From positions 32,001 through 96,000 of the IMG/VR virus record IMGVR_UViG_3300036939_000021: DNA of 64,000 nt; one strand, written 5' to 3'. The notes below the pieces were generated by a model that was given only the letters and a program-made list of their open reading frames with translations, was not told where the DNA came from and ran no database searches. Positions 1,331 through 52,624 of this stretch are shown here, in pieces (positions within the stretch are counted from its first letter, which is position 1; each line of letters opens with the position of its first letter). The stretch comes from a virus. A program made the position numbers and the translations under genes.

Positions 1331-1768
1331 ATGACTAAAATATTTATTGCTAATCTAATAATTAACTTTAACGTAGAAATTACTAAGGATGAAATAGAGA
1401 TCGATGAGATTACAGGAAATCCGGTAATTATCGATTCAGAGTCTATTTATAAAGTAAAAGCACATATTCGAGGATTGCCTAGTATTCTTCAGGAAATGGG
1501 GAGCAATCCAAATCAAGTTAATGTAGAAGGAAAAATAGTAGAAACATGGAATCAGAAATTAAAACGCTGGGAAAATAACAAAATATTGCCAACACATATT
1601 ATAAGGTATCAGACTGAAGCAACAGCTGTCTACCTTAATCCTGATGAAGGCTTTGAACAAAACTGTTATTTTACTCTTCAACCTGATGTTGACTCGAAAC
1701 GCCCTAGAGTCGCAAGACGATTAGCAAAACGTTTAGGTAGCGATATTAAAGGAATTTTAAGATTCTGA
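1331..1768 (+). CDS. putative head-closure / head-tail joining protein
   Basis: 145 aa, beta-rich, DEITGNP motif near the N-terminus as in head-closure proteins; close to other neck genes. Confidence 0.45.
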   Translation: MTKIFIANLIINFNVEITKDEIEIDEITGNPVIIDSESIYKVKAHIRGLPSILQEMGSNPNQVNVEGKIVETWNQKLKRWENNKILPTHIIRYQTEATAVYLNPDEGFEQNCYFTLQPDVDSKRPRVARRLAKRLGSDIKGILRF

Positions 1769-1973
1769 AGAAAAATAAATCACTAGGTAATTATTGCAAA
1801 TTTTGTTATAAAAAAGTTTTCTATAAAAGAACTATAGCTAAACTATGCGAACTTAATCGAAAAAATTATAAATTTATGAAAGTTGAAGGTGTTATCTGTG
1901 ATTCTTGTATTAATGGTTTTGATGATGGTGATAATAGAGATTATATAGAAATTTAAATTTGAGACACCTTTGA

Positions 1974-2155: not shown

Positions 2156-3364
2156 TCAATTAAGTTTATAAGGAGTAATCCTTACTGGCTGAACTACAAC
2201 AGCCTGTATTCCTTCTACAAACGCATTAGGAAATACTTTTCTGATTATATTTAAACTACCGTTGATATCAGCATTTATAAATTTGTTGTCAGCAGTTCTA
2301 AACAGCCCTCTTTTGACTCGCTTTCCCAAATACAACTCATGTTTACAAATAGGTTCATTATCCAAAGCACTACATTTTGAAGTGTAGCTTTCCTCTGTAA
2401 TGAAAACTTCAATGCCAACTAACTCACATTTGTACTGAAGCATTTCAATAAACTTGGCATGAGGAATTTGTACAAAGTTTTGGTTATTCCGCTTACCTAA
2501 ATTTATTTCTTGCTTCCAACCATCGTTTTTACCTATCACAAGGTTGCCAACTCGATGCTTAAGTAAGTAATTAACAATGAATCGACTTGCATTGTGTAGG
2601 TAATTATCTACTTTGCAGTTACGCTTATGAGTCAGTTTTTGAATCTGATTTGATGTGTAAATTTTACCCTTTAGTTTAGATTGCAGGCTAGCACGTTTCT
2701 TATTGAAATATACGTTGATTGACTTAAGAGGTCTTCCGTTAACCAGTACAGGTTTAAAGCCTTTAAGATTTGATGTTAAAGCCCCTAATGTATTCAGCCC
2801 GATATCTAAACCAGCAACAGTATTAGAGTCTAACTCGTGTTGTTCAGTTTCTTTCTCATAGACTACCTCAATAACATAATATTTGATTTTTGGAACTATT
2901 CTAACTTGACAAACATTATCAACTTTTGTAGGAATAAATATGTCTGTTTTAGATGGGTTAATTAAACCTTTTTTCAAGGCTTTCTTGCTAATTGCTTGAT
3001 TGGTGTAAGTGACTAAGTTTCTACCTTCCGTTTTATGTTTATAGCCAGGTAACTTAGGTCTGCCCTTAAACTTAGCAGGATTCTTGTAATATTCTTTATT
3101 TATCACAGCGAATGACTTCCAAGCTTCATCAAGCTTCATTAACACTTGCTGAGATACCTTGGCAGGCAAAGCAAGATAGTCAGGTGTATTCTGACACTGC
3201 TTTTGAACAGTGTTGTAACTTAGCCTAGTTCTGTCATTTATAAACGGTTGCCTAATTAGATAATTTGCATAGTTAAACAAATTTTTAGACAAAAAGCAGA
3301 ATTTGTCACATTCTTTATAAAATTTATGACTTTGTTTGATGATATGTCGTTCGACTAGCTGCAT
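2156..3364 (-). CDS. tnpB: RNA-guided endonuclease TnpB
   Basis: Likely start MQLVERH at 3364; RuvC motifs AGLDIG, VIGKN...EESYTSK and NADING. Confidence 0.93.
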   Translation of the reverse strand: MQLVERHIIKQSHKFYKECDKFCFLSKNLFNYANYLIRQPFINDRTRLSYNTVQKQCQNTPDYLALPAKVSQQVLMKLDEAWKSFAVINKEYYKNPAKFKGRPKLPGYKHKTEGRNLVTYTNQAISKKALKKGLINPSKTDIFIPTKVDNVCQVRIVPKIKYYVIEVVYEKETEQHELDSNTVAGLDIGLNTLGALTSNLKGFKPVLVNGRPLKSINVYFNKKRASLQSKLKGKIYTSNQIQKLTHKRNCKVDNYLHNASRFIVNYLLKHRVGNLVIGKNDGWKQEINLGKRNNQNFVQIPHAKFIEMLQYKCELVGIEVFITEESYTSKCSALDNEPICKHELYLGKRVKRGLFRTADNKFINADINGSLNIIRKVFPNAFVEGIQAVVVQPVRITPYKLN

Positions 3365-3410
3365 ATCTGTTATAGTTGTACTAACACTAGTATAGCAAGA
3401 GTTAGTAGAA

Positions 3411-3557
3411 ATGACACGTTTATCAGAGAAAATTTTGACGATTCGCATACCAGATATAGAGATGCAACTGTTAACTGAGTATTGCAAGCAAACAAAAAGG
3501 ACAAAGACCGATGTGGTAAGGGAACTTATTCGATCCTTGTCACAAAAAGGTACTTGA
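3411..3557 (+). CDS. CopG/ribbon-helix-helix protein (48 aa)
   Basis: Manual translation MTRLSEKILTIRIPDIEMQLLTEYCKQTKRTKTDVVRELIRSL; divergent from tnpB. Confidence 0.85.
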   Translation: MTRLSEKILTIRIPDIEMQLLTEYCKQTKRTKTDVVRELIRSLSQKGT

Positions 3558-3660: not shown

Positions 3661-3951
3661 ATGGCACGTTTAGATTGGACTCCACCACAGATAACAGAAT
3701 ATGCAGAGTTTCAATATAATGTGGATTATGCTGCTGAAGTACACGAACTTACAGGTAATCGCTGGACTGATAGAGGATTAAATGGATCTAATCTACCTGA
3801 TGTTATGGCTAGCGAATATGCTAGTACTCAGGATTTAATTCAAGCTTTTAAAAATACTGCTGAATACTTGGGAGAACGTTTTCAAAATGAAGCACCAGTA
3901 AATTCAGGAAAACTTAAAGCTAGTTTTAATATTGAATGGAAAAATTTATGA
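3661..3951 (+). CDS. HK97 gp10-like tail-completion/neck protein (motif order permuted)
   Basis: YNVDYAAEVHE and APVNSGKLKAS motifs. Confidence 0.65.
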   Translation: MARLDWTPPQITEYAEFQYNVDYAAEVHELTGNRWTDRGLNGSNLPDVMASEYASTQDLIQAFKNTAEYLGERFQNEAPVNSGKLKASFNIEWKNL

Positions 3952-4383
3952 TTCCAGGGGGTAAACTCTAGTATTAAATACTATATTATCAGGAATTCTA
4001 AAAGTTGCTAAAAGTGTTTCGTATTCAGTAAAATTATTGATTGTTTCCCGACGATACGGAAAATTTAAACGCATTATTTCTATGGCGGTATCAAATTTAG
4101 TATATATTTCGGGTGTTCTCTCATTAGTTTTGAGTGTAATCATCCACTCAACAATATCCATTGATTGCGAATTTAATAATAAATCTGTGGATAAAGTATT
4201 TTTATACCTTCCGATAACACACTCAAGACCCCCTGTAACAGGTTCTTTTGGTGTAGATGGTGGCTCTACCCATATCGCCTTAATCTTAGTTCCATAAGTG
4301 CCTAGATACGGTGTGAGAATAGCTTCTAGCTTCTTACGTAATGGTAAAACTTGGGGGTAATAGGGATTAGGAAAAATTTCCAT
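3946..4383 (-). CDS. putative tail terminator protein
   Basis: LRKKLEAILTPYLGTY...AIWVEPP...GLECVI pattern; likely start MEIFPN at 4383. Confidence 0.5.
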   Translation of the reverse strand: MEIFPNPYYPQVLPLRKKLEAILTPYLGTYGTKIKAIWVEPPSTPKEPVTGGLECVIGRYKNTLSTDLLLNSQSMDIVEWMITLKTNERTPEIYTKFDTAIEIMRLNFPYRRETINNFTEYETLLATFRIPDNIVFNTRVYPLES

Positions 4384-4620
4384 ACCGGAATAATATTTTA
4401 TTAAAAAATCTGCTTCAGTTTCGAGACACCAAAGCAGATAGTACAAACAAATTGTAACTGAGAGTGCTTTTAAATTTTAACAAAAAATCTTAAAAAATTT
4501 GTGTTTTTGTTATCACATCGAAGTATTTTTGAAAAATAATAAACTAACGTGTGGAAAACTATGTTGAATATGTGAATTATTCCAGTGATGAAATTATTAT
4601 ATAGAAATTTAAATATAGTC

Positions 4621-7315: not shown

Positions 7316-8317
7316 TTAAGCGGCTAATGTTTCCTTAGCGAATAGATATGATTCCAGTTGTTCTTTCTTTTCTGGTACATACTCAAGCCATACCTTACCA
7401 CATTCTTGTTTCATCTCTATAGAAAACTGAAAGTCTATAAAATTCTCGCTAGGTGCTGGATGTTGTTTTTTAGAATAATCCTGATAAGGATTGGTTAGTA
7501 CACGATAGAGTTTTTCTGGAAGTGTCTTTTGAAATTGTTGATAAGACTTTTCCCAATTTGCAATTGCTGTTTGAATGTCTTCCTCATAGTCTTCATCTTC
7601 TAATTGCTCTTGTGTGACTTGAGTGAAGCCATAGGAAAAGAGATCAATTTGTTCGCCAGTAAATAAAGTATCGATGAGTTTTAGAAATAATCCTTGTCGC
7701 TTTTGCTCTAATTGGTGTTCCTCGTATTCTTCTTGAGTCATATTTTCAACGGATTTAAATCCATTTTGACTGAGAAAGGGTGAGTACTCATCGCCTCTGT
7801 AATTGATGATTTCTAAGAAACGCATTTTATGGAGAGGCATAGGATACGCCCAAGGTTCAATAGTTTTGATTTGATTGTCTTTAGCTGCAAGAGCTTTTTG
7901 TAGTTCTACTACCGTTTGTCGTAATTCCTCAAGTTCACCTCCAACGTTCTGATACTCAGTAACAACAGCTTGCGATGATACACCCTCAAGCATAACTACT
8001 TTATCTTTACCGAGTTTCTTAATGACATCGATAACCCATAAACGTAATTCAATATTTGACCAGTAACCAAAATCAATCACCATTTCTTCCGTTCCCCAAG
8101 TCCCTCCATATTTGCCTTTTTGGACATCTAAAACTTTACCTTTAGTTTTTTCTAAAGCTCTTGTTAACGCTAAAGTATTCTCATTTCGTAAATAATTTCC
8201 TATTAAAGTATTGGTACTTTTTGCCATATCTGTTAAACATCCCCAAATAGAACCATCATCTCTTGTTTCAAAACGGATATTTTTACCTTGAAATTCTTGT
8301 GTAATAATATTTGACAC
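7316..8317 (-). CDS. KilA-N domain protein
   Basis: IRFETRDDGSIWGCLTDMAK...YLRNENT...GGTWG...IDFGYW. Confidence 0.85.
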   Translation of the reverse strand: MSNIITQEFQGKNIRFETRDDGSIWGCLTDMAKSTNTLIGNYLRNENTLALTRALEKTKGKVLDVQKGKYGGTWGTEEMVIDFGYWSNIELRLWVIDVIKKLGKDKVVMLEGVSSQAVVTEYQNVGGELEELRQTVVELQKALAAKDNQIKTIEPWAYPMPLHKMRFLEIINYRGDEYSPFLSQNGFKSVENMTQEEYEEHQLEQKRQGLFLKLIDTLFTGEQIDLFSYGFTQVTQEQLEDEDYEEDIQTAIANWEKSYQQFQKTLPEKLYRVLTNPYQDYSKKQHPAPSENFIDFQFSIEMKQECGKVWLEYVPEKKEQLESYLFAKETLAA

Positions 8318-9917: not shown

Positions 9918-10067
9918 CTAGGTGATGCCTCTTGCTAGCCGTTCTAGAGTGTCGGATAGACTAGTAGCGTTTATTTCTGTTTGTTTTTCTTCAAGCCACT
10001 TGAGTACTGTTGGAGTAACGGTAAGGGTGAGTTTTTGCTTAGATTCTTTATATACATTTTTTCTCAT
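9918..10067 (-). CDS. CopG/RHH protein (49 aa)
   Basis: Manual translation MRKNVYKESKQKLTLTVTPTVLKWLEEKQTEINATSLSDTLERLARGIT; terminator at 9864-9896. Confidence 0.75.
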   Translation of the reverse strand: MRKNVYKESKQKLTLTVTPTVLKWLEEKQTEINATSLSDTLERLARGIT

Positions 10068-10137
10068 AAGTAGTGTAATACCCGTTTAAAATACGTGCTA
10101 TAATTAAAGAGTAACGCAAATAGAAGGATTTTGCAAG

Positions 10138-10857
10138 ATGTCAGTTATTCAACAATGGCAGGGATCGGATATAAGATTTGAGACGCGTAAGGATGGACGT
10201 GTTTGGGGATGCCTTACAGATATGGCACAAGCAACAGGCAAACTAGTAGCCGATTATCTACGTCTTGTATCTACCCAAGATTATTTACAAGCTTTATCAG
10301 ATGATATGGGAATCCCCATAGCTAACATACTTTATGCTATTCCAGGTCAAAAAACAGGAACTTGGGCTATTGATGAAGTAGTAATAGATTTTGCACAGTG
10401 GTGCAATGTAAAGTTTCGGATTTGGGTGAATCGTGTTATTCGGAGTTTGATTATAGAGAAATCAGCATCATTTTTAGATGATTCTGTAGAAGAAAAAGCT
10501 TTATCGATGATTAGCAATTTAATTAATCAGATGGAAGCAAGTGTGAGTGATCCGTTAGCTGTTAGTCGTTATGGTAAGGCTATTGATGTTTTGAATGTAA
10601 CATTACATCGTAATCAAACGGCAATGTTAAAGGATATCAAAACTAACTCTGTTTCTGATTTCTTAGAACAACACGTAGAAGAGTTTAAAGGAGAGAAGAT
10701 GATAGCGAAAGACTTGTATCACAGTTATTGCCGTTTTTGCTTAAAAAATAAATATACAAAAGAGACATTAACATCTTTTGGTAAATATGTTAGTACAGTG
10801 TATGAAAAACATCGTACAAATAAAGGAGTAATTTATTTAGATATGCGGTTAAAATAA
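10138..10857 (+). CDS. KilA-N protein with C-terminal D5/P4-primase-type winged helix
   Basis: KilA-N N-terminus; C-terminal DLYHSYCRFC...TSFGKYV...RTNKGVIYLDMRLK. Confidence 0.8.
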   Translation: MSVIQQWQGSDIRFETRKDGRVWGCLTDMAQATGKLVADYLRLVSTQDYLQALSDDMGIPIANILYAIPGQKTGTWAIDEVVIDFAQWCNVKFRIWVNRVIRSLIIEKSASFLDDSVEEKALSMISNLINQMEASVSDPLAVSRYGKAIDVLNVTLHRNQTAMLKDIKTNSVSDFLEQHVEEFKGEKMIAKDLYHSYCRFCLKNKYTKETLTSFGKYVSTVYEKHRTNKGVIYLDMRLK

Positions 10858-10931
10858 AAATTGAAATGCGGTTTTTTGTCAAGTATACAAATCTGACTTT
10901 CCCAGAGGTCAGATTTTTTTTTAATATTTTA

Positions 10932-10995
10932 TTGACATCTTAGATTTTTATTACCATAATAGAGGAGTCGAAAGAGAAAGCTAAGGAAAACCAAA
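10932..10995 (+). promoter_or_regulatory. repeated early promoter/RBS module
   Basis: TTGACATCTTAGATTTTTATTACCATAATAGAGGAGTCG...GCTAAGGAAA. Confidence 0.9.
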
Positions 10996-13659: not shown

Positions 13660-13665
13660 AACAAG

Positions 13666-17469: not shown

Positions 17470-17471
17470 TA

Positions 17472-39510: not shown

Positions 39511-39515
39511 ATATT

Positions 39516-40948: not shown

Positions 40949-40979
40949 AAAGCAAAAACATAATCGGATAACAACAGTT

Positions 40980-41025
40980 AAAAAGAAACCTCGGAATAAT
41001 AAAGATTATTCCGAGGTTTCTTTTT
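40980..41025. terminator. hairpin with GGAATAAT-AAAG-ATTATTCC core
   Basis: 21-bp perfect arms with a T tail. Confidence 0.8.
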
Positions 41026-41050
41026 TGCTAAAACTTTTTTATATATGCTC

Positions 41051-41111
41051 TTGACATCTAGTATTTTTATAAGCATAATAGAGGAGTAGCTAAAGAAAAG
41101 GAAAAAATCAA
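41051..41111 (+). promoter_or_regulatory. repeated early promoter module
   Basis: TTGACATCTAGTATTTTTATAAGCATAATAGAGGAGTAGCTAAAG. Confidence 0.85.
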
Positions 41112-41339
41112 ATGAGTCTTCAAGAAGTCGCACAAATAGCTCAAGCTTCTCAGAATATTCAGCTAGTAGTCGATACTATGTCTAATGCTATGGTCTATCA
41201 TCCCGAACTTTACACAAACAGAAAATGCTACACGGATGGCTATTTTGTAATGGATAAGACATCCGGGCGAATTTGGAGCTTTCAAACTCTAGATGAGACT
41301 GTTCGCTTTATTTATGGTTTAACATACTGGACACATTAA
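41112..41339 (+). CDS. hypothetical protein (cassette cargo)
   Basis: Between promoter and hairpin 41357-41406. Confidence 0.72.
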   Translation: MSLQEVAQIAQASQNIQLVVDTMSNAMVYHPELYTNRKCYTDGYFVMDKTSGRIWSFQTLDETVRFIYGLTYWTH

Positions 41340-41356
41340 GCTGACGAAAAGTAAAT

Positions 41357-41406
41357 AAAAAATCAAACACCGGAATAAGTAATATTATTCCGGTGTTTGA
41401 TTTTTT
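41357..41406. terminator. hairpin with CACCGGAATAA/TTATTCCGGTG arms
   Basis: 22-bp perfect arms. Confidence 0.8.
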
Positions 41407-41446
41407 GTTAGTTTAAATAAAATAAAAATTAAATTTAAATATACTA

Positions 41447-41500
41447 TTGACATCTATTAATTTTATAGCTAAAATAGAGAAAAGCTAGAAAATTAGGAAA
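41447..41500 (+). promoter_or_regulatory. repeated early promoter module
   Basis: TTGACATCTATTAATTTTATAGCTAAAATAGAGAAAAGCTAG. Confidence 0.82.
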
Positions 41501-41896
41501 ATGAAAGCAAAATACAAAACTACAGAAATTACTGCTTATCCTTCTGGATATAAAGCTGAAAGAGAATTCAATAAGATTTTTACAGATGCTAATTATCAGA
41601 AAGGATTAGAACTTATAAAAGAGAGGATAGGAGAAATAGAGGAGGATTTGATTAAAGAAGATTACAACTCTATTAAATCTCGCTCTACTAAACGGCTTTA
41701 CCCGCATTATGATAGACCTTTAGCCGGATATTTTTATCTAGCTTTATCTACTTATCGAGATAGCTTTAATAAATTAATTATCATGCAATCACCAGAGACT
41801 TTAGAATGGGATAGCTTTGATAGAGATGAAGTCATATACAAAAATCCTGAAGGAGAGACAAAAGCTTTAGAAATTTTAAATCTGATGCTAGCTTAA
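41501..41896 (+). CDS. hypothetical protein (cassette cargo)
   Basis: Between promoter and hairpin ~41912-41955. Confidence 0.72.
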   Translation: MKAKYKTTEITAYPSGYKAEREFNKIFTDANYQKGLELIKERIGEIEEDLIKEDYNSIKSRSTKRLYPHYDRPLAGYFYLALSTYRDSFNKLIIMQSPETLEWDSFDRDEVIYKNPEGETKALEILNLMLA

Positions 41897-41955
41897 AGAT
41901 TGAGAAAAACAAAAAGAATCTCCTAAATAATGTATTATTTAGGAGATTCTTTTTG

Positions 41956-44900
41956 TTAAAAATAGCATATGTCTTTGATATATGTACAGCAATCTGATAT
42001 CCTTAAATTATTGACATTTGTTTTTAGAAGTGCTATACTTTCTACTGCTTCCAAATGCCAGAAACCAAAGTATTCAAATAGTTGCATACTATTAAAATTG
42101 AATATTGGTTGACCTCTACTGAAAGATCCTTCCATCAAACCTGAAGTAACAAAATTGCATTTAAGAAAATCGTAAGAAGCTTTTATTCCTCTTAAAGTTA
42201 CAGATGAATTTCTACCAGAGATATCAGCTATATTTGCATAAATAAACATTCTAAGAGCTATTGCAGCAAAATGAATAGTTCGATAATTACTTACTGGATC
42301 AATTTCAGCATAAAAGTCTGTTGGAGGTTGAAACTTTTTATTTCTTAAATAGTAACTACTTAACCAATTAATAAAGCCCATACTAATTTTTTTAGCTTGT
42401 GCTTTTAATTTTTCAAAATCAGTAGGTAGCGGAATATTAGTAGGAAATTCACCGATAGCCATTCTGTACCAAGCATGAGCTACACTTTCAGCTGGTCTAA
42501 TTTGATAACCTTCCCAATTTGTATTAGGGTCAACACCCTGAAAAGAGAAAAAGTCATATTGACCTTTTTCAAGTTGAAGTGAGTCCCAATACCCCCAGAC
42601 GTAGGTAGGAGCAAAAACACCATAAGTTTTATTTTTATTTTGTTGTCGATAAGCTTCTTGTGCGTCTTCTAAAAATTGTAAAACTTGTCGAAGTCGATCC
42701 CAATAACCCATTTTGACGTACCAACCCGGATATTGATAACCTGTTGCTGGCGCGCCTCTCCAACCTTCTACAGTTTGTCGAGTACCACTACCATCATCAA
42801 AAACATTTACAGTAAACGGAACAACACCGGGATTATAAGGAAGAATATCGCTAGGACTTCCTATAGGTTTAAAATCTCCTATCCATAGAGTATGAGCAAC
42901 TTTAAGACGGCTAACTATGACAGCTTTATAACTTTTAAGTGTTCCAAGTAATCTATAAGGTTCTTGACCTACCCAAAATATCCAAACTTGGCTAGCTGTT
43001 GGGCTAGCTACAAATTCAAAATTTGTAATAATATTTCCGCTGGGTGTTTTATTATCAAAATCTTTAAATTCGTTAGATTGAAAACTAGATTTTACCCAAT
43101 CAGTAGTCTGAATTGTTTTTCGATATTCTTTACCTGCAATCGTAAGTTTTATTATTGCAGTACCCTGTACTTTGTATTCCATCGTAAAAGGTAACGTTGG
43201 CAATCTTCCTAATAAATCTGGTGCAATACCTTTTGTTACTAAACCAGCACCAGCAAAATTACCATTAGCTGATAAGGTTATCTTAAAAACTTCATTTCTT
43301 ATTCCGTTTATTTCTGGATACTCCTTTACAATATTTGCTACACCATCATCACCTTTATAGGTGTAAATAGGATTATCAGCGATCCTAGTATGCCAGACAG
43401 TTTGTGCCTCATCCCATAAAATAAATTCATTTTTATTAAAATTTGCAATAGTTGTTACATTAGCAACTACAGGTAAATATCTTTTATAATATTGTGAAAA
43501 ATCAAAAGGATTGGGTTTAAGACTAATAATTAATTCTAATTCTGTTGTAATACTACAAGCTACTTCTACATATACTGTAGTATCGTCATCAAGTGTCGCA
43601 GTAACAGCATAGTTAGAAAATTCAATACTTGGATATTGAGCGGTAGAAGTTGGTATAACAACTTGTAAAAAATCTTTTTTATCTCCAGATATTACTCTGG
43701 AATTATTAACAATTCGATCATTTTTTGGAACTATTACAATTTGAGAACCCGGATAAGCAAAAGGATTTAATACATCATCTTTTTTATACCAATGTGTTAA
43801 ATTTATGACTTCTGCTGAGATTGCCTCTGTATATTTATTACAGTTATAGGCTACTGCCCAAATAGGATTAGTAGGCTCTATTTGAGTCATACTCTCATAA
43901 GCATCAGATGCCCAGGGGAAAACATCAATAGCACCAAGAGCTTCTATAGGTCTTAAAAGTCTCCACATCGGATAAGCTTCAAAACCTGTATTAGCGGGTA
44001 CTACAGCACCAACATATGCAGCATAAACAACTTTAGCAGTACCAGTATAATTAGTTTTTAATTTTATTATTCCAGGGTTTTCGTTTGTTTGTGTAGGTGC
44101 TTTTCCTCCAGGTTGTGAAGATTCTGGATAATATCGAACTATTACACCTTCTAATAAAATATTGCTAGTCCAATATTCGATATCCCACCAAAATCCTCCT
44201 AGCGGTTCAGCATAAACATTTTGCCAAAGTAATTGATCTGTTTCTGGATAAACTCGATAGACATCACTAAGCAATTCTCCAAAATTAGGAGAACCATTAG
44301 GAATAGTAGTAATCCCATTATTAAAATTTAGTATTAAATCAAAAAAGCCATAGTTTAAAGGATCGCTTGAAACTTTACCTTTAGTAACAAAAGATTCTGT
44401 TGTTATCAACCAATGAGGTACTCTAATACCTTTGTCGGGTGTCCAATTGGATTCTATTTTTAATGGATAAAAATAATTTAATAACGCATTACCACAAGCA
44501 ATTGCTAAATTTTTATATCGGACATCTCCCGTAACTTGGAAAGCATAAGCACAAGCTCTAGTAATAACAGCTTGTGCCTCTGTAGGAGCGCCAGAACTAG
44601 GAAAATATCCACCACGACCTAAAACCTTGTGGAAACTATTTCTAAGTACATATTGAGCATTAAGAATATATGGATAATCAGCTTTTTGCCATCTTAACAA
44701 CCAACTAATAGCACCATTTAAATGCAAATCTAAATTTGTATCATTAACCGATTCTTGTAATTTTGCTAGAGTTTCTTCTTTAGTTTTTGTTATATCGTAA
44801 TCCTCAGCAGCTTGTTTAAGAGCTGATTTTCTAAAAGGTTGATAGCTTCTTTTAAAACTTAAATCTATTTGCCAAAAATAGGGAGCAATGTAAGTATTAC

Positions 44901-45558
44901 TCCAAGCCATACAAGTGTATATATTATTACGAAATCTAAACGGGCGTGATGCCAAATCACGCATAAAATTGTTAGTAAGCTGTCTCTCTGACTCCGAGAC
45001 AGTTTTTGACAAAGACCAAGTATCAACACTGGAATTATAACCATATCTTGTTCTTGTTTCTATTCCACCATTTTTACGAGTTGTAAGAGTTTTTATATTA
45101 AAACTTCTATTAGAATTATATGTAATTTCAAAAGGAAAATTAGGATAATCTTCTAATAAATCAATATCTTTAATAGAACATTCATCAATATACCAATGAT
45201 TCCACTTAGAAAATGTAAATTGTACTTTCCATAATCCAGATGCAATCTGATTAATATTCCATTTATCAGCTATATATTCTCCTAAATTATCGATGCCCAA
45301 TTCCCAATTGTATGTTGTTTCTCCTACAGGTTTAGGTTTACGTAATCGCCATTCTAAAGGATTAATACCCTGATAGTTTTGAATAATATCTACAGAACTT
45401 AGATCGGTTACGGTTCCTGATAAATTCCAAGATTCCTCTATAATTTTTCCTGTTGGTATTCCAAGAATTTCAAAACAATCACCAAGTTCTTTATTATTAG
45501 AAAAGATACTATAATTTACCGATACTCCATATTCAGGGTTAAATTGAAATTCTGGCAT
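41956..45558 (-). CDS. large tail protein: two gpM-like domains plus putative (alpha/alpha)6 glycosidase-like region
   Basis: N-terminal ~240 aa parallel 33683 and 32923; PTEAQAV...AFQVTGD.RY resembles the GH8 SEGQ motif. Confidence 0.65.
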   Translation of the reverse strand: MPEFQFNPEYGVSVNYSIFSNNKELGDCFEILGIPTGKIIEESWNLSGTVTDLSSVDIIQNYQGINPLEWRLRKPKPVGETTYNWELGIDNLGEYIADKWNINQIASGLWKVQFTFSKWNHWYIDECSIKDIDLLEDYPNFPFEITYNSNRSFNIKTLTTRKNGGIETRTRYGYNSSVDTWSLSKTVSESERQLTNNFMRDLASRPFRFRNNIYTCMAWSNTYIAPYFWQIDLSFKRSYQPFRKSALKQAAEDYDITKTKEETLAKLQESVNDTNLDLHLNGAISWLLRWQKADYPYILNAQYVLRNSFHKVLGRGGYFPSSGAPTEAQAVITRACAYAFQVTGDVRYKNLAIACGNALLNYFYPLKIESNWTPDKGIRVPHWLITTESFVTKGKVSSDPLNYGFFDLILNFNNGITTIPNGSPNFGELLSDVYRVYPETDQLLWQNVYAEPLGGFWWDIEYWTSNILLEGVIVRYYPESSQPGGKAPTQTNENPGIIKLKTNYTGTAKVVYAAYVGAVVPANTGFEAYPMWRLLRPIEALGAIDVFPWASDAYESMTQIEPTNPIWAVAYNCNKYTEAISAEVINLTHWYKKDDVLNPFAYPGSQIVIVPKNDRIVNNSRVISGDKKDFLQVVIPTSTAQYPSIEFSNYAVTATLDDDTTVYVEVACSITTELELIISLKPNPFDFSQYYKRYLPVVANVTTIANFNKNEFILWDEAQTVWHTRIADNPIYTYKGDDGVANIVKEYPEINGIRNEVFKITLSANGNFAGAGLVTKGIAPDLLGRLPTLPFTMEYKVQGTAIIKLTIAGKEYRKTIQTTDWVKSSFQSNEFKDFDNKTPSGNIITNFEFVASPTASQVWIFWVGQEPYRLLGTLKSYKAVIVSRLKVAHTLWIGDFKPIGSPSDILPYNPGVVPFTVNVFDDGSGTRQTVEGWRGAPATGYQYPGWYVKMGYWDRLRQVLQFLEDAQEAYRQQNKNKTYGVFAPTYVWGYWDSLQLEKGQYDFFSFQGVDPNTNWEGYQIRPAESVAHAWYRMAIGEFPTNIPLPTDFEKLKAQAKKISMGFINWLSSYYLRNKKFQPPTDFYAEIDPVSNYRTIHFAAIALRMFIYANIADISGRNSSVTLRGIKASYDFLKCNFVTSGLMEGSFSRGQPIFNFNSMQLFEYFGFWHLEAVESIALLKTNVNNLRISDCCTYIKDICYF

Positions 45559-45625
45559 ATTTTATAATAAAAAAATACTAGCTCCCTAAAGCTAGTATAG
45601 AAGTGTTACCACATATTAGAACATT

Positions 45626-45838
45626 TTATCTTTTTATTGGCAAATTACAACAGGGTGTTACTAATAAAAAACAAGATTCTCTATAATATCCATAAACTCT
45701 AAGAGAAGCATACCCAACACCACTAAGAGAGCCTAGGGGTTTATAAGAAACCTGATTAGGTATTTCAGCATCATTTATTACAGCATAGCAATCTGTTTTT
45801 TCTAAATCTATAATTCGTTTGTGTTCTGTTGTGTGCAT
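45626..45838 (-). CDS. hypothetical protein
   Basis: ORF track. Confidence 0.4.
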   Translation of the reverse strand: MHTTEHKRIIDLEKTDCYAVINDAEIPNQVSYKPLGSLSGVGYASLRVYGYYRESCFLLVTPCCNLPIKR

Positions 45839-46233
45839 AATTCCAGTGTTTGATTTTTCGTAAATCGATTTCCTGAGTATTCTAATTTATTAACTTTTTC
45901 TATAAAATTTTTAAGAGGTCGTACCCAAGCTAAAGACTCTCTATTAGTTTGAGCAGCTGGATATAAAATCCAATGATTTTTTTCTTCAATCTGAACTAAA
46001 TATAAATCTTCTGTTTCGCTATCTCTAGCAATAAAGTTACCGTAAATTGATATCTCTTTAAATGTGTTAAACCAGTTATCTGTATATATTACAGGAAATT
46101 TTTTAGTAAGTTCTATATAAAAGAAATTTGCAGAGTAACTTCCAATACCAATTATCCAGTAATTTGTACCTTTAAAATGTTTCCAGTTTTCCCCGGATTT
46201 TGGAATTTCACGATCAAACATAAAAGCTATCAT
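45808..46233 (-). CDS. DUF1653-like protein
   Basis: WKHFKG..Y...ARDSETE...WVRPL.NF...RF. Confidence 0.7.
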   Translation of the reverse strand: MIAFMFDREIPKSGENWKHFKGTNYWIIGIGSYSANFFYIELTKKFPVIYTDNWFNTFKEISIYGNFIARDSETEDLYLVQIEEKNHWILYPAAQTNRESLAWVRPLKNFIEKVNKLEYSGNRFTKNQTLELCTQQNTNEL

Positions 46234-46283
46234 ATATTATTTTTATTATTATAACAGATAAGAAACACTGGAATAATACATTA

Positions 46284-46296
46284 GTGGAATATTGTA
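46284..46296 (+). promoter_or_regulatory. putative late promoter GTGGAATATTGTA
   Basis: 28 nt upstream of the tape measure ATG. Confidence 0.7.
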
Positions 46297-46324
46297 TTTA
46301 TATATTTTAATTTTTTATTGTTAA

Positions 46325-49300
46325 ATGTCTACATCTCTTGGACGGTTAACACTAGATTTAGCCGCAGATCCGACACAACTTAATAATGATTTAAATGCTG
46401 TTAAAGCTCATGCTCAACAGATAGCAAAAGATATAGAAAATAGTTTAAGACAAGCTTTTCAAACAGCAGGATCAGCAGCAACTAATGCAGCAAACCAAGC
46501 TAACCGAAATAATAATACGGGTACGAGTAATAATTTTTTTTCTGGTTTAAATAATAGTTTAACAAGTTTTACTACAAATATTAGAACTACTTTTGCATCT
46601 TTACGTACTTTAAATTTTACTAATATTTTTAGAGGCTTAAAAACTTCATTTCAAAATATACCACAAATAGCCCAAAATGCTATTAGAAATTTACCAAGAA
46701 TATTAAAAGCGGGTGTAGCAACTTTACCTATTGTTTTAGCTGCTGTCGGAATAGAGGCAGGAAAACGTTTAGGTCAAGGAGTATTAAGTGCAACAAGAAC
46801 AGGATTAAGCGGTTTAGGACGTTTAGCACAAAAAGCAGGAAGTACAGTAGCTAGTAGTTTTAATGCAGGTTTGGGTGCTATAGCTTTTGGTGCTTTTACA
46901 AGTGCTGGAGTTTCTGCATTTAATACCGTTACAGGTGTTATAGGAGGTGCAATTAATCAAGTTAAAGGATTTGGAGGAGAGTTATTTAACACTTTAAAAG
47001 AAGTTCAAAAATTTGATGCACGTCTTAAAACTTTTGTAACCGATACAGAAAAACGAGCTGAACTAAATAAACGTTTAAATTCTTTTGCTGCAACCACACC
47101 TTTTGAATTAAAAGATATTCGTGAATCTGCAATAAAAAATCTCAGCACTATGGCTGATCCGTCTAAATTAAATTTAGATAAATATATGGCAGATTTAAAA
47201 GCACTAGGAGATGTTGCAGCAGGTTCTCAACAACCAGTTGGAGAATTAGCGGATAAATTTGCTAAAGCACGTTCAGAAGGAAAAGCACAAAATGAAGATT
47301 TACAAGAATGGGCAGGTAGAGGCATACCCATTTATCAAGAGTTAGGAAAACTCTTAGGAGCTACAGCAGCAGAAGTCAGACAAATGGCTACAGATGGAAA
47401 AGTAGATTTTGAAATGCTTTCTGCTGCTGTTAGTTCAATGACTCAAGAAGGAGGAGTATTTTTCAAAAGTATGGAAAATCAAGCTGGAACATTAGAAGGT
47501 AAAATTTCTAATATTTCAGATACTTTCTACCAATTTAAAGAACAATTAGGTAAAGCTTTTGAGCCTCTAGCTAATTTAGGCGTTGATATCTTTGGTGAAA
47601 TAGTCTCAAGCCTTAAAGATTCTAAAGGTGTAATGGAAGATATTACAAAAGAAACTCAAAAACTTGCAGATTATTTTAAAGAAAATCCAGAAATAGCAAA
47701 ATCTTTAAACAAGGCACTACAAGACATTATTCGTGGTGCAATGAAAGGTCTAGTTAATGGTGTTAAAAGTTTTACAGAATTTCTAAAAGATAATCCAGAT
47801 ATTATAAAACAAATTGCAACCGGAATAGCTACAGTATCTAAAACTATTGCACAAGTCGTTGGATATGTTGTAGATTTAGCTTCTACTTTTGGTGGTGCTG
47901 TTGCCGATAATATAGCAAAAAACCAGGATTTAATTACTGGAATAATAAATATAATTCGGGATATTGTTGATAAAGCAATAGAAATTGCTTCAGTTTTTGG
48001 TAACACGATTCTTAATGCTGTAAATGAAAATAATTTTCTCATTGAAGGAATGAGAAATATTGTTACAGCCATTTTAGATTTATGGTATCAACATAAAGAT
48101 ACTTTATTATTAATTGCACAATCTATCGGCTCTCTTGTAGTAACAGCTTTAAAAGTTGTTATAGATTTAGTTTTAGGTATTCTTAATTATCTTAAAGAAC
48201 ATCCAGCAATTATACAAACTATAGTTAAAACAGTACAATTTCTTTCTGCAATATTTGAAGGAATTCTTAAAACTATTGGTTTATTACTTCAGGGTTTAGG
48301 TTGGGTGATAGAGAAAGTTACTCAATGGGTAGCAGCTAATCAACCAATACAAACATTTTTTGATGGTGTTAGTACAGCAGTCACCGGAATAATAACCGGA
48401 ATGGATAATATTATTGCAAAAACTTTTGATTGGTTAAAAAAATTAGAACCTGTTCAAAAAGCTTTAGAGTGGATAGGTAATTTAAGTAATAGTGGTGGTG
48501 ATAATAGTGGTAATGAGAATAATGGAGAAGTTCAAGATATAGGTAATTCCATGAATGGGATGCTTAATACTATGGGAGGGAGTTTTGATCCTTTTGCTGG
48601 TGGTTCTAATTCTTTTGCTGCCAAAGTTGTAGGACATAGCGAAGGGAACAGAACTGCTACAGGCGGTTTTAATGCTAGTTATAAAGGACATAGCGATCCT
48701 GGTAATGCTCAACATAACGTGGGTAGTTTCAGTATGCAAACTGGAACTCATGGAATGAAATCACCCGAACAAGCTGATATATATTGGCAAGGAAAACTAA
48801 AAGGTGTATGGAATCAGTTCGTACAAGCCGCACAAAAAGCAGGATTAGATCCAAACAATCCAACACTTGCAGCAAATTTTTTAGATTTGTATACTCAATC
48901 TCCTGCTGCTGCTGTAGAAGGTATGACATCTTTTATTAATAATCTTGACAAAATTAAAGCAGGTGGAGGAACAGAAGAAGCAATATTAAAAACACGATTA
49001 GCGGCATTTCATAATAGTGCTGGAAGATTAGAAGCATGGACAGATATAGGAGGTTTAACAGCAGATCAAAAAAGAAGAATGTCAGCATTACAAGCAGCGA
49101 TGCCTAATGCCACTAAAGGTATGCAAATGAGTAGTAGTGGAGGATTAGAAAATTTTCCTGAAAAAAATACAGGTAGCAGACGTGGTGGGAAAACTATAGC
49201 TCATCCAAGTGGTGGATTAACTATACATGATTCCGCTGGTGGAACTATCGATAAATATAGTCAGCTAACGGTACATCATCCTAGTAGAGGAACTAGAGGT

Positions 49301-52300
49301 AGAGAATCCGGACGGAATTATTTAGATATTGGTGGACGTTTAGAAGAAGCAAGAATAGGTGGTGATGTAGCTGGTGGTGTTCCTCATATTAAAAAAGATT
49401 TTGTATTAGAGGATAAAAATGGAAGTCTTGATGTAGGTATGCCAGCACCTACATCAGGTATTGTTTCTGCTATTTATCCAGAAGTAGGAGCTGTTGTAAT
49501 TGGAGACGGTAAAGGAGGACGTAAAGGTGCTGCTCTACATATGAAAAATATTAGAGTAAAAGTAGGGGATAGAGTTTCTTATGGTCAGATAATTGGTACA
49601 CAGTCTTATACAGGTAGTGAAGCTGTACACGCTCACGTAGAACTACCATTAAATGAATTTCCTAGATATATTGCAGATTTAAGATCAGGTCGTTTTGGTT
49701 CAGCTCCAGAATCTTCTAATTCCGATGATAAAAGTTTAGGTAACTTTAACGAAAGAGGTACTGGTAGTAACAAACCTTCTAATAAAACTACACCAAAAGT
49801 TAGCAGTTCAAGTGGAGGTTCTAGAGTTGCTGCTGCTACGAGTACAAGTAATGTTAGTGGTACTTCTTCTAGTAAAAGTTCTGTTTCTAGCTCTAGCACT
49901 ACAAGTAATAGCAGTGGAGGTCTTGTAGCACCTAAAGTAAGCTCTATCACAGTATCGCCTCAAGCTAAAAGAGATTTACTTACCGCTCGTCAAAAAGAAC
50001 AAGAAAAATCTTATAAAGAGATTGCTGATGAAATAGCATTCTCTCAACGTACTGGTAATGCTCAACAAAAACAACAACGAGAATTAGAAGATACAGCAAG
50101 AAAGCGTCAAACAGAAGAAGTAAAAGCCAGATTACAATTACAGATAGCTAAAGCAGAATCACCGGAAGCTAAGAAAATTTTAGAGAAAAATCTTCAACAG
50201 TTTGATGTTGACACTAAATATGAAGACGAACTCAAAAAATTACAACGTCAACGAGAAGATTTAGTAAAATCTCAACAAAATAAAATAGCCGCTATTAAAA
50301 AAGCAGAAGAACGTAAAAACGAATTTATAGAACAAAAACGAAAAGCGGGTGAAGAATATACACCAGCAGATTTAGAAAAATTCAAAGTAACACCTGATGA
50401 AGGTGCAATGATGGATTTCTCAAAAGCAATCAAAGACGTTGATAAAATGATTGCTTCTCAGAAAACTTTAAAAGAATTAGAACTCCAAACCCTTGGAATA
50501 AGTGAATCTATCGAAGAACGTCAGGAACGACGTGCTAAACAACGAGAACGTGATATAGAACAACTTAAACGTCAAAGTGCTATTGAAATTGATAGTTTGA
50601 AAAAACTGGAATCTTCGGTAACTGATGAAGATTTAAAAAAACAAATACAAGAAAAATTATCTAAAACTGAATTACAACTTAATGCAAAAATAGAGCTAAT
50701 GCCAATTGATGACCAATTGGAAGATTTACAGTTAGCATTATCAGAAGTACTTGCAGCAGGAATTAAAAAAGATGCACCAGAAGCACAAGAAATACAAAAA
50801 CAAATAGACGAATTAAATAAACAAAAAGCAGAAATAGCTAGAAAATCAGGATTAGATTTAACCCTCTTAGAAAACGAGCGTAAGCAAGCTGATATAGAAC
50901 GAGAACGTGAAAAGAAAGCCGAAACTAATGCTTTAACACATCGTACTAAAATAGCTGAAATTGATAGTAAAATTACTTCAGCTCGTTCTGATACGGAAAG
51001 AGCTACTTTAGAATTTGAAAAAGAAAGATTAAGTTTATTACAAGAACAATCAGAAGAACAACAACCTCTATTAGATAAATTAGCTGATTTACAAAAAGAT
51101 AAATCAACACTCTTAGGAAACGGTATTAAAGAATCATCGGAGGAAATGAAAATCCTTAATGATTCCATTGGTACTGTTACTCAGCAATTACTTTTATTAC
51201 AAAAAGAAGGTAAGACAGCTTTAGGCACTCTTACTAAAGAATCTCAAAAAGCTATAGATGAAGCTAAACGTGCTGACTCTAGCAGATTATTAGAAAAAGA
51301 ATCTTTACTATCAGGTAGCGATCTCAAATCTTCACGTTTAGAACAAATGCGTGAAAGAGATGCTGATCCATATAAAACATCAGCTTTCGAGAAAGAGATA
51401 GCAGCATCACAAGAAGCATTACGCTATCGTCAAGAAATGTTAGACATTGAAGAGAGAATAGCAAGTTTTCGTGATACTAATGCAGAATTATCGGTAACAG
51501 AAGAAAACCAACTCCGGAATAATGCAAGAGCAATTCATGAAATTAATTTAGAAAAAGTAAATGATAACGTCAGAACACTTGGAAAAGATTTAAGTAGTAT
51601 AGGTAAAGGTGCTGTTAAAGATTTTTTTGGTCAGTTAGTTTCTGGCAGTATGGACTTTAACAGTATTATGCAAAATATAATTTCTCAAATAGGTAATCTT
51701 GCGGTAGAACTTATTCAATCACATATTTTCGGAGAAGATGGATGGTTTGGTAAAAAATCTAAAAAAGAAGAAAAATCTGGGGGTGGTTTCTTAAGTGGGT
51801 TATTAGATGGCTCTCAAACACCCTCTAGCTTATTAGGTGGAAGTGGAGCGGGTGCAAGTCCTCTACAACCTGCTTTTGTGTCTGTAGTAGGCAGTGGAGG
51901 AGGTATAGGAGGATTGATAGGAGGTGCTACAGGTACAAGTAGCTTTGGAGGTGGAACCGATTTTATTAGTGCAATATTTGGTGGAGGAGGTTCTATTAAT
52001 AAAACCAATCCCTTACCGATAGATATGGTTAGCGCTGATAAAAATGCCTTTAGCGGTCTAGGGGATATCTTCTCTGGTATCTTTGGAGGTGGCTCTAGTG
52101 GAGGTCTAGGAGGGATGCTAGGGGGATTATTCGGAGGAGCTACCGGGGGATCTACAAGCTCACCTGGAGGAGGATTATTTGGAAGTATTCTTGGAATCTT
52201 ACCTAGTATTTTTGGATTTGCTGATGGTGGAAGAGTTCAAGGTGTAAAAATAGATAAACTTCCTAATCCAAGCGAAAATCCTATTGCAAAAGCTCTTAGA

Positions 52301-52624
52301 GCCGAAAGTATCGCAAGTGGTCAAAAACCTATTCTTGCTGTACTTCATGAAGGCGAATTAGTTCTTAATCGAGAACAACAACAAAGAGCAGGTATTTTTG
52401 ATGTTCCTAGATTTGATAATGGTGGACGTGTTGGTAATAATAGTATGAGTTTTGGAAATACAAATAATAATAATATTAATATGAGTTTTAATGTCGGTGA
52501 AGGTGTTGATAATTCCGGATTAGACGTAAATATGATCCGTGCTGTCGTAAATAACGAAATTATTAGACAGCAAGGATCAGGAGGAAGTTTAGGACGTGGT
52601 TCTTATTCCAGACGTGGGAGATAA
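46325..52624 (+). CDS. tape measure protein with embedded lysozyme-like and M23 peptidase-like domains
   Basis: FAATTPF...LGDVAAG...GIPIYQEL tape-measure domain; VKVGDRV..GQIIG...TG....HAHVE (M23); C-terminal FADGG...LHEGELV. Confidence 0.93.
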   Translation: MSTSLGRLTLDLAADPTQLNNDLNAVKAHAQQIAKDIENSLRQAFQTAGSAATNAANQANRNNNTGTSNNFFSGLNNSLTSFTTNIRTTFASLRTLNFTNIFRGLKTSFQNIPQIAQNAIRNLPRILKAGVATLPIVLAAVGIEAGKRLGQGVLSATRTGLSGLGRLAQKAGSTVASSFNAGLGAIAFGAFTSAGVSAFNTVTGVIGGAINQVKGFGGELFNTLKEVQKFDARLKTFVTDTEKRAELNKRLNSFAATTPFELKDIRESAIKNLSTMADPSKLNLDKYMADLKALGDVAAGSQQPVGELADKFAKARSEGKAQNEDLQEWAGRGIPIYQELGKLLGATAAEVRQMATDGKVDFEMLSAAVSSMTQEGGVFFKSMENQAGTLEGKISNISDTFYQFKEQLGKAFEPLANLGVDIFGEIVSSLKDSKGVMEDITKETQKLADYFKENPEIAKSLNKALQDIIRGAMKGLVNGVKSFTEFLKDNPDIIKQIATGIATVSKTIAQVVGYVVDLASTFGGAVADNIAKNQDLITGIINIIRDIVDKAIEIASVFGNTILNAVNENNFLIEGMRNIVTAILDLWYQHKDTLLLIAQSIGSLVVTALKVVIDLVLGILNYLKEHPAIIQTIVKTVQFLSAIFEGILKTIGLLLQGLGWVIEKVTQWVAANQPIQTFFDGVSTAVTGIITGMDNIIAKTFDWLKKLEPVQKALEWIGNLSNSGGDNSGNENNGEVQDIGNSMNGMLNTMGGSFDPFAGGSNSFAAKVVGHSEGNRTATGGFNASYKGHSDPGNAQHNVGSFSMQTGTHGMKSPEQADIYWQGKLKGVWNQFVQAAQKAGLDPNNPTLAANFLDLYTQSPAAAVEGMTSFINNLDKIKAGGGTEEAILKTRLAAFHNSAGRLEAWTDIGGLTADQKRRMSALQAAMPNATKGMQMSSSGGLENFPEKNTGSRRGGKTIAHPSGGLTIHDSAGGTIDKYSQLTVHHPSRGTRGRESGRNYLDIGGRLEEARIGGDVAGGVPHIKKDFVLEDKNGSLDVGMPAPTSGIVSAIYPEVGAVVIGDGKGGRKGAALHMKNIRVKVGDRVSYGQIIGTQSYTGSEAVHAHVELPLNEFPRYIADLRSGRFGSAPESSNSDDKSLGNFNERGTGSNKPSNKTTPKVSSSSGGSRVAAATSTSNVSGTSSSKSSVSSSSTTSNSSGGLVAPKVSSITVSPQAKRDLLTARQKEQEKSYKEIADEIAFSQRTGNAQQKQQRELEDTARKRQTEEVKARLQLQIAKAESPEAKKILEKNLQQFDVDTKYEDELKKLQRQREDLVKSQQNKIAAIKKAEERKNEFIEQKRKAGEEYTPADLEKFKVTPDEGAMMDFSKAIKDVDKMIASQKTLKELELQTLGISESIEERQERRAKQRERDIEQLKRQSAIEIDSLKKLESSVTDEDLKKQIQEKLSKTELQLNAKIELMPIDDQLEDLQLALSEVLAAGIKKDAPEAQEIQKQIDELNKQKAEIARKSGLDLTLLENERKQADIEREREKKAETNALTHRTKIAEIDSKITSARSDTERATLEFEKERLSLLQEQSEEQQPLLDKLADLQKDKSTLLGNGIKESSEEMKILNDSIGTVTQQLLLLQKEGKTALGTLTKESQKAIDEAKRADSSRLLEKESLLSGSDLKSSRLEQMRERDADPYKTSAFEKEIAASQEALRYRQEMLDIEERIASFRDTNAELSVTEENQLRNNARAIHEINLEKVNDNVRTLGKDLSSIGKGAVKDFFGQLVSGSMDFNSIMQNIISQIGNLAVELIQSHIFGEDGWFGKKSKKEEKSGGGFLSGLLDGSQTPSSLLGGSGAGASPLQPAFVSVVGSGGGIGGLIGGATGTSSFGGGTDFISAIFGGGGSINKTNPLPIDMVSADKNAFSGLGDIFSGIFGGGSSGGLGGMLGGLFGGATGGSTSSPGGGLFGSILGILPSIFGFADGGRVQGVKIDKLPNPSENPIAKALRAESIASGQKPILAVLHEGELVLNREQQQRAGIFDVPRFDNGGRVGNNSMSFGNTNNNNINMSFNVGEGVDNSGLDVNMIRAVVNNEIIRQQGSGGSLGRGSYSRRGR

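Follow-up and report, generated by a model that had tools for sequence, protein, structure and literature searches.

A lambda-type tail module scattered gene by gene over both strands of a siphovirus genome, with tail protein J in two distant genes

The fixed head-to-tail order of virion genes is a dependable rule of phage genomics, used to annotate genes that have no recognisable sequence. How, then, does a siphovirus come to have its morphogenesis genes strewn over both strands, and what could have allowed it? The question is raised by IMG/VR virus record IMGVR_UViG_3300036939_000021 (105,884 bp), of which we analysed bases 32001-96000, a stretch of 64,000 nucleotides that we call the window. 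An earlier note on the window had described its morphogenesis module as scrambled, and had proposed that many independent late promoters freed the gene order and that repeats drove the shuffling. Comparison of gene maps confirms that the morphogenesis genes were broken up in evolution and that their order is matched by none of the nine relatives compared. The observation in the note stands once some gene labels are corrected; its interpretation stands in part, autonomous late units being plausible and the "many late promoters" an extrapolation.

The window covers the virion-gene and replication regions of a siphovirus genome that is complete at about 105.8 kb. Both ends of the record (genome 1-127 and 105758-105884) carry the same 127 nt in direct repeat, an exact overlap as in a circular assembly, so that the unique genome is about 105,757 bp; G+C content is about 32%, and the genome holds no tRNAs. 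Coordinates are window positions unless marked genome, and minus-signed positions precede the window start. Small genes, all on one strand, fill the first 23 kb of the genome. From the large terminase gene (genome 23343-24839, minus strand) to the end of the tape measure gene, the strand switches 29 times among 75 open reading frames (ORFs), or 21 times among 54 when only ORFs of at least 90 amino acids (aa) are counted.

By protein similarity, the lineage is one of siphoviruses with relatives in assemblies of filamentous cyanobacteria (Nostocales); the capsid family is present in Fischerella, Aetokthonos, Nostoc, Tolypothrix and Dolichospermum assemblies. Searches of GenBank phages gave no match by megablast with 24 kb of the window or by tblastn with the capsid protein, and a single distant one by tblastn with the portal protein, while scans of IMG/VR with a 1200-aa tail protein and with J-N, the larger part of protein J, returned zero matches. 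The nine relatives compared are five contigs from IMG/VR (G001-G005), three whole contigs of 104-118 kb from Nostocales assemblies (G006-G008) and a complete 103,420-bp IMG/VR genome with terminal repeats (G009), reached through a J homolog. The head and tail genes of the window are as follows.

14197-14385 and 14445-15278, minus strand: two tail assembly chaperone candidates.
15961-16656, minus strand: paralog of the tail tube protein, 31% identical to it.
16656-17426, minus strand: tail tube protein (weak match to phrog_820).
17472-19400, plus strand: J-N, or the first five sixths of J, the central tail fibre/tip protein (phrog_31 positions 253-841, E value 5e-136).
19704-21185, minus strand: conserved 493-aa protein with a weakly EndoVII-like N-terminus, divergent from the scaffold gene.
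21251-22099, plus strand: scaffold candidate, Glu/Lys-rich and charged.
22143-23507, plus strand: major capsid protein, HK97 fold with an insertion domain (P22/Sf6-like).
23524-24476, plus strand: two conserved head-linked proteins.
Within 24489-32697, plus strand: Ig-domain proteins (Pfam Big_7, Y_Y_Y).
29899-30768, plus strand: minor tail protein.
30775-32697, plus strand: tailspike-like protein.
32923-33270, minus strand: M-like minor tail protein 1, M1 (phrog_14, E value 6e-5).
33683-34012, minus strand: M-like minor tail protein 2, M2 (phrog_14, E value 8e-12).
34018-34671, minus strand: minor tail protein L (phrog_18; Pfam Phage_tail_L, PF05100, 67 bits against a cutoff of 25).
34677-35132, plus strand: J-C, a gene of its own for the C-terminal module of J (phrog_31 positions 855-957).
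35136-36080, plus strand: repeat protein Y, containing five 26-aa repeats in tandem (period 78 nt).
36074-36922, plus strand: minor tail protein in the position of lambda K (phrog_30).
37080-37649, plus strand: tail assembly protein I (phrog_32, E value 9e-24).
37954-39510, plus strand: portal protein (phrog_145).
41956-45558, minus strand: 1200-aa tail protein (phrog_2871, E value 1e-117; phrog_14).
46325-52624, plus strand: tape measure protein of 2099 aa with a peptidase-like segment (phrog_9959, phrog_1942, phrog_305).

Read along the window, the order is chaperone candidates and tube (minus), J-N (plus), head genes, M, M and L (minus), J-C, Y, K and I (plus), then portal and, further on, tape measure (plus). 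The virion genes fall into about ten to a dozen blocks of one to four genes each, on both strands; homologs of M, L, I and J are present, and the contiguous, co-oriented H-M-L-K-I-J order is absent from the window. Even nucleotide-metabolism genes are interleaved among the virion genes, with ThyX (Pfam Thy1) and a dCTP deaminase-like gene at 12913-14196 (plus strand) between the neck-region and the chaperone and tube genes. Family and fold searches uphold the earlier placement of capsid, portal, tube, tape measure, L, the two M-like genes, I and the J pieces on the two strands. What the phage shares with the lambda tail module is its content, namely homologs of L, M, I, J, tape measure and tube; G009 keeps the lambda order on one strand. 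Unlike in lambda, the portal gene here comes after the tail-tip genes, starting 15.8 kb after the start of the capsid gene, the tape measure gene and the chaperone candidates are 31 kb apart, J is divided between two genes with 15.3 kb between them, and M-like sequence occurs in two genes and, weakly, as a domain of the 1200-aa protein.

The assignments on which this map is built differ in kind. The capsid protein had no match in sequence-family searches, and its AlphaFold model (26 homologs; predicted local distance difference test score, pLDDT, 77) matches the Sf6 and P22 coat proteins with a Foldseek E value of 1e-13 and, further, many other HK97-fold phage capsids, so that the predicted structure confirms an HK97-fold major capsid protein. 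The scaffold label is positional only, the gene standing upstream of the capsid gene in all relatives that hold the region; the divergent placement of the 493-aa gene beside it recurs in G006 and G008. In G001-G003 and G005-G008 the two head-linked genes come after the capsid gene; the G004 contig stops just past its capsid gene. Portal orthologs of 53-61% identity occur in IMG/VR contigs and in three Nostocales assemblies. A tube model of low confidence (pLDDT 63) has as its best matches the tubes of T1, FCWL1, phiXa, monocin, lambda (gpV) and SPP1. Family searches with the chaperone candidates gave no match, and their label too is positional only: their orthologs lie between the tube and tape measure genes in G004-G008. 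A chaperone frameshift was considered and rejected, as the two candidates in relatives overlap by 4 nt or stand apart as separate genes.

Among the tail-tip genes, M1 has orthologs beside L in G006-G008 and after J-C in G009, and Y has orthologs after J in G006-G008 and, on the opposite strand, after M1 in G009. The label K given earlier to 36074-36922 rests on place, the ortholog standing between L and I in G009, and not on domains, since a Pfam scan found no K-type or peptidase-type domain beside the phrog_30 match; in G004-G008 it comes after the tape measure gene, on the other strand. The label "Dit-enzyme" over-reads the 1200-aa protein, PHROG and Pfam searches of which gave no enzyme domain. 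Its weak M-like domain covers residues 140-241 (Pfam Phage_min_tail, below cutoff). Among the relatives only G009 has this protein, at 40% identity; among phages, only distant enterobacteria and Vibrio phages of large genome match it, at about 23%. The fibre-type group at 24489-32697 also matches phrog_754/356 and tailspike PHROGs. As an observation apart, giant ORFs of 4170 aa in G009 (18048-30560) and 4220 aa in G002 (38173-50835) resemble the end of the window tape measure in their C-terminal part; from this likeness they may be oversized tape measures or fusion proteins.

Is such an order simply that of the clade? We counted breakpoints over reciprocal-best-hit genes, with orders taken from tblastn and ORF maps. 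Against the window they number 9 in 23 genes for G005, 11 in 25 for both G006 and G007, and 11 in 28 shared genes for G008, the Tolypothrix-assembly contig. In G004-G008 the tube, chaperone and tape measure genes form one unbroken run on a single strand, the tape measure coming after the chaperone genes, and G006-G008 share a layout of K (plus), then tape measure, chaperone, tube, L and M (minus), then I, J and Y (plus). G009 is near-lambda and wholly on the plus strand, running from a terminator-like domain through tube, a tape-measure-like giant, L, K, a 428-aa protein, I, J-N, a 1.5-kb insert and J-C to M. The window retains almost none of the relatives' adjacencies, K-I alone persisting. 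That the order might be ordinary for the clade, with nothing special in this phage, draws some support from G005-G008, which are also non-lambda, with M-L-tube-chaperone-tape measure on one strand, I-J on the other and K opposed, and which also have tightly abutted divergent starts. We consider this very improbable all the same, because the window is 9-11 breakpoints from each of these four contigs and differs from all nine relatives, while the relatives disagree with one another as well (10 breakpoints in 38 genes for G006 against G008, with 4 in 34 for G007 against G008), and G005 has I and J on the strand of the tube gene, unlike G006-G008. The breakpoint counts indicate that the clade as a whole rearranges and that this phage is its extreme case.

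The tail tip and the head of the phage have different nearest kin. For L, K, I, J-N, J-C, M1 and Y, identity is 36-47% to G009 versus 25-39% to G006-G008, and for M2 it is 32% to G009 versus a lone 25% match in G007. Capsid, portal and terminase are 58-61% identical to their counterparts in G006-G008, the small head-linked proteins 34-52%, the scaffold candidate 34-35%, the tube 41-43% and segments of the tape measure 32-47%; in G009 we detected no match to the window capsid, portal or terminase. As the tail tip is closer to G009 and the head to G006-G008, the genome is mosaic as well as rearranged, and part of the scrambled pattern is, judging from these identities, mosaic exchange between phages.

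Separately, the distant relative G001 has the head genes in common and an unrelated tail module that is almost wholly co-oriented. This module carries two receiver-domain homologs of window gene 57076 (at 10045-10933 and 9959-10834), and it ends at an integrase, so G001 is probably temperate.

J itself is divided in the window. Its two pieces lie 15.3 kb apart, with head genes, fibre genes, M, M and L between them; the first probably starts at the ATG at 17490, given a database gene call of 636 aa. J is undivided in G005-G008, a single ORF of 757-784 aa, and in alignment to the fused J of G006-G008 the end of J-N ('...EISAKTYAG') abuts the start of J-C ('MNKYEMLDN...') with zero residues lost. 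The genome holds no second copy of J. The six closest J-N homologs (67-80% identity; Logan and ENA assemblies), of 625-638 aa, share the stop residue, two further groups of homologs (47-49% and about 40% identity) stop there too, and other J homologs extend 133-148 aa beyond the end of J-N, which is the J-C module. A word-indexed protein search had yielded no standalone J-C ortholog; one is present in G009, whose J is two genes split by the 1.5-kb insert, with a KilA-N gene in the insert abutting the J-N stop. On these alignments, the cut in J is a recurrent domain boundary conserved in the phage's own sub-lineage, and for that reason a defect is very unlikely. J would work as two polypeptides cut at a natural domain boundary, and the unusual feature is the 15.3-kb gap between the halves. 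One or two simple inversions as the origin of the split were rejected, as most tail genes keep their strand and change their order relative to G006-G008, and half of them are flipped relative to G009.

Could the contig itself be at fault, as an assembly artefact or a chimera? Short dispersed repeats are abundant on both strands, and misassembly at repeats is what the earlier note had named as the danger to its reading. The longest internal exact repeats, of 51, 41 and 30 nt, are all direct and lie among the early cassettes found at 4.6-7 kb and around -5.9 kb; in dispersed inverted repeats, exact matches do not exceed about 30 nt. Set against these, the 127-nt end overlap fits a circular assembly. 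The junctions are clean gene ends, J is cut with its own stop and ATG at a boundary common to six relatives in independent assemblies, and a second contig of nearly equal length (105,898 bp) carries identical capsid and J-C proteins in the protein database. We strongly infer from the contig sequence that assembly error is unlikely, and as an explanation of the order it is extremely improbable.

If the order is real, how can it be workable? Short motifs in front of several virion genes, and a sigma gene near the left end of the window, bear on this.

17453-17469, minus strand: late motif GTGGAATATTGTAAATA, 26 nt upstream of the tube ATG.
21209-21225 and 22105-22121, plus strand: late motifs flanking the scaffold gene.
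46284-46300, plus strand: late motif GTGGAATATTGTATTTA, 24 nt upstream of the tape measure ATG.
629-1324, minus strand: phage sigma-70-family factor with regions 2 and 4 (phrog_351, E value 2e-37; Pfam Sigma70_r2 and Sigma70_r4 above cutoff).

The 17-nt motif GTGGAATATTGTAAATA precedes the tube gene on the minus strand and the scaffold, capsid and tape measure genes. With up to 3 mismatches allowed, the window holds 4 sites, as compared with an expectation of 0.66 and with fewer than four in every one of 100 shuffled sequences. When a weight matrix was run over the whole genome, a single further site came up, ahead of a 147-aa gene at -2741 to -2298. In all five cases the site precedes a start codon by 21-26 nt. 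Relatives G006-G008 have a GGGAA-type motif 20-50 nt upstream of orthologs of the motif-bearing genes and also of portal and I. It precedes 7-11 of the roughly 130 ORFs per contig, and in G006 and G007 most ORFs so preceded are orthologs of virion-module genes. Because the GGGAA motif marks these orthologs even where they are contiguous, unit autonomy seems older than the scrambling. The sigma-70-family gene, for its part, is conserved in all relatives of the clade.

The divergent gene pairs bear on where promoters can lie. As the earlier note had it, the starts at 34671/34677 are 5 bp apart and those at 1324/1331 are 6 bp apart; alignment to relatives backs these start positions. The second pair sets the sigma gene head to head with gene 1331, an arrangement kept in G005-G008. 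That the promoters of L and J-C must lie inside the opposite gene follows from the map. Only opposite-strand genes lie upstream of L, so its promoter would be within one; J-C would be read from within L because between it and the nearest plus-strand operon upstream stands a two-way hairpin (33273-33311), flanked on either side by A and T tracts, that would block read-through toward J-C. The claim of many independent late promoters has support in that several structural genes on either strand carry their own motif copy, and overreaches in its "many", which extrapolates from five.

Two further observations concern these motifs. The tube late motif overlaps a perfect 14-nt palindrome, TTCCACTAGTGGAA, within 17440-17490, so that on the J-N strand another GTGGAA half-site falls some 12 nt ahead of the ATG at 17490; from its position it may be a shared control site of the divergent tube/J-N pair. 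The sequence YGGAATMAT, which overlaps the core of the late motif (GGAATATT), has 162 copies in the genome on both strands, within genes and in hairpin stems (e.g. 24426, 25977, 27802, 33672, 46270); it was rejected as a late promoter, being that numerous and lying inside as well as between genes.

Our favoured explanation, held with moderate confidence, is that the scrambled blocks are tolerated through autonomous late units and that their order arose from module exchange and within-genome rearrangement together. Abundant virion genes would be read individually, each from its own short late promoter, and not as one long late operon. We infer that GTGGAATATTGTAAATA acts as this promoter in the phage and a GGGAA-type motif in the relatives, probably read with the phage's own sigma-70-family factor. 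Two-way hairpin terminators would end the units, moving or flipping a unit would then be cheap, and scrambling would be tolerated on that account. By module exchange, a tail tip of G009 type would have been combined with head, tube and tape measure genes resembling those on the Nostocales-assembly contigs, and repeated rearrangements inside the genome would have done the rest, leaving early-type orphan cassettes, nucleotide-metabolism genes and mobile elements between the blocks. Sigma use, tolerance as the reason and any role of repeats would all be of this conjectural kind.

Several points tell against this explanation. Tolerance gives no cause of rearrangement. The motif copies number only five, and the J-N, L, J-C, portal and 1200-aa protein genes have no recognisable promoter. 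The motif was first seen by eye in upstream regions and counted afterwards; the GGGAA motif of the relatives is short, and some copies lie within coding sequence, where conservation is perhaps protein-driven. The order comparison covers nine relatives that are more distant than the nearest ones (74-87% capsid identity; Logan/ENA contigs of 12.7, 14.0 and 43.8 kb), and within the sub-lineage the exact order may or may not be shared. Assembly was judged from the contig sequence, not from reads.

What, then, has moved the units? The repeats to which the earlier note pointed form two families. The first is an early promoter of host type together with its leader (TTGACAT...TAnAAT...AGAGGAGT), of which there are more than 15 copies; the second consists of long hairpins with a common ...CYGGAATAAT stem. 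These elements (families D1, D3, D4 and D5) flank unrelated small orphan ORFs on both strands, and the cassette ORFs have neither homologs in the relatives nor paralogs. In two places such a cassette interrupts a structural operon that is unbroken in the relatives.

15348-15681, plus strand: moron-like cassette with an early-type promoter, a 73-aa orphan ORF and a 19-bp-stem hairpin.
33273-33632, minus strand: moron-like cassette with an early-type promoter, a 78-aa orphan ORF and a hairpin, between the two M genes.

The first lies antisense in the tube-chaperone operon, between the 15699 gene and the chaperone candidate, whose counterparts overlap or abut in relatives; the genes flanking the second are adjacent there. 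Morons of lambdoid phages are likewise autonomous units that add accessory genes. The cassettes also resemble the promoter/stem-loop (PeSL) mobile regulatory cassettes by which shuffling is known in T4-type phages (Arbiol et al. 2010, PMC2839356; Comeau et al. 2014, PMC4122927), having a conserved promoter and stem-loop around unrelated small ORFs, and in two cases forming promoter-ORF-terminator units within late operons. It is conceivable, then, that promoter/leader repeats and GGAATAAT-hairpin repeats recombine in the manner of PeSLs, excise, invert and re-insert units, and are the main cause of the shuffling; a GGAAT-type motif does lie within about 40 nt of 9 of 15 junctions, by our own count of the map. 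Yet the repeats are early-type promoters and terminator hairpins, expected at unit boundaries for functional reasons, so that finding them at junctions proves nothing. There is no nearby repeat at J-N|19397, L|J-C, 35136|K and tape measure|52627, and the copies are just 63-90% identical across 50-80 nt. PeSLs and morons, moreover, add, swap or shift accessory genes, in the case of PeSLs those of hyperplastic regions, and are not known to reorder core virion genes. On balance we think repeats unlikely to be the main cause.

Mobile elements are other possible agents, and one of them lies at the left end of the window.

1331-1768, plus strand: conserved protein with orthologs in G002, G003 and G005-G008, a neck candidate by position only.
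2156-3487, minus strand: TnpB of IS200/IS605 type (phrog_506; Pfam OrfB_IS605 and Cas12f1-like_TNB).
3661-3951, plus strand: small conserved protein, its orthologs in relatives 29-55% identical.
3946-4446, minus strand: likely terminator or completion protein of the tail (leads from Atlas features and structures, to the families Phage_tail_terminator and gp17).

The earlier note had placed neck genes at 1-4 kb. Most of that stretch proves to be the sigma-70-family factor, the TnpB element and two unassigned genes, and one gene, 3946-4446, agrees with the idea in that the leads make it likely a tail terminator or completion protein. A domain homologous to it lies directly upstream of the tube gene in G009. 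Gene 1331 had no match in family, Atlas or PDB searches and the 3661 protein none in a PDB sequence search, and PDB profile searches with the families of 1331, 3661 and 3946 returned chance matches only. TnpB interrupts a neighbourhood conserved in relatives, separating 1331 from 3661, and the 3946 gene is inverted relative to 3661, whose ortholog it accompanies on the same strand in G005, G007 and G008.

It may be, therefore, that mobile elements and illegitimate recombination rearranged the genes, the scattered order being a neutral by-product. Besides the TnpB gene just described, the genome has a second one (genome 7897-9141), and two paralogous HNH endonuclease genes (phrog_374; genome 24899-25930 and 27177-27854) lie beside the large terminase gene, in the place that portal occupies in G006. 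The KilA-N gene at the J-N stop of G009 has kin here, the genome holding three paralogs with a common N-terminal domain (7316-8317, 10138-10857 and genome 102778-103563), the first two with a KilA-N Pfam match and the third by similarity only; one of the paralogs has additional Pox_D5- and RFX-like C-terminal matches. Many junctions, too, are tail-to-tail gene ends 0-4 nt apart. Most junctions in the window are nonetheless without any mobile element, no invertase or integrase was found among the ORFs scanned, and TnpB elements are not known to relocate neighbouring genes, which leaves this explanation doubtful in our eyes. A bolder form of the favoured explanation, in which every core virion gene would be a self-contained unit read by the sigma factor, and the recombination that moves cassettes would also shuffle, flip and split core tail genes, we offer tentatively and think improbable as it stands. 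If true, it would make this phage a natural experiment showing that gene order is dispensable for the assembly of a lambda-type tail.

How far does the arrangement depart from other phages? In T4-type and jumbo phages, virion genes lie in several clusters, with many short late promoters and a phage sigma. The phage resembles these in its sigma gene and in an A/T-rich motif (…TGTAAATA) near the starts of abundant virion genes on both strands. It is unlike T4 in that its factor is of the ordinary sigma-70 family, having regions 2 and 4, and does not resemble gp55, and in that the motif has five copies only; it is unlike both groups in being a lambda-like siphovirus of about 106 kb. In mycobacteriophage Marvin some minor tail genes are reportedly displaced, and the title of the report on that phage speaks of an 'unusual genome organization'. 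In cyanophage vB_AphaS-CL131 (about 113 kb, Nostocales host), which has no detectable sequence relation to the window, terminase and portal flank the structural region oppositely, and the order 'deviates from the conserved order' (PMC6293099). Unlike these two, in which one or a few blocks are displaced, the window shows scrambling gene by gene and a split J. The canonical order is kept in the roughly 110-kb cluster J mycobacteriophages (PMC3706429), and the lambda order in Cr-LKS3, a Nostocales siphovirus (PMC9303873).

What is new, then, is a lambda-type siphovirus tail module scrambled gene by gene, with J in two distant genes. Within this group, the finding is a warning for annotation based on position. 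The series from near-canonical G009 through the half-rearranged G005-G008 to this phage offers a route by which to study how a module breaks up. And a lambda-type tail that has been kept while nearly every adjacency was broken bears on what gene order is for, be it assembly, dosage, timing or mere inheritance.

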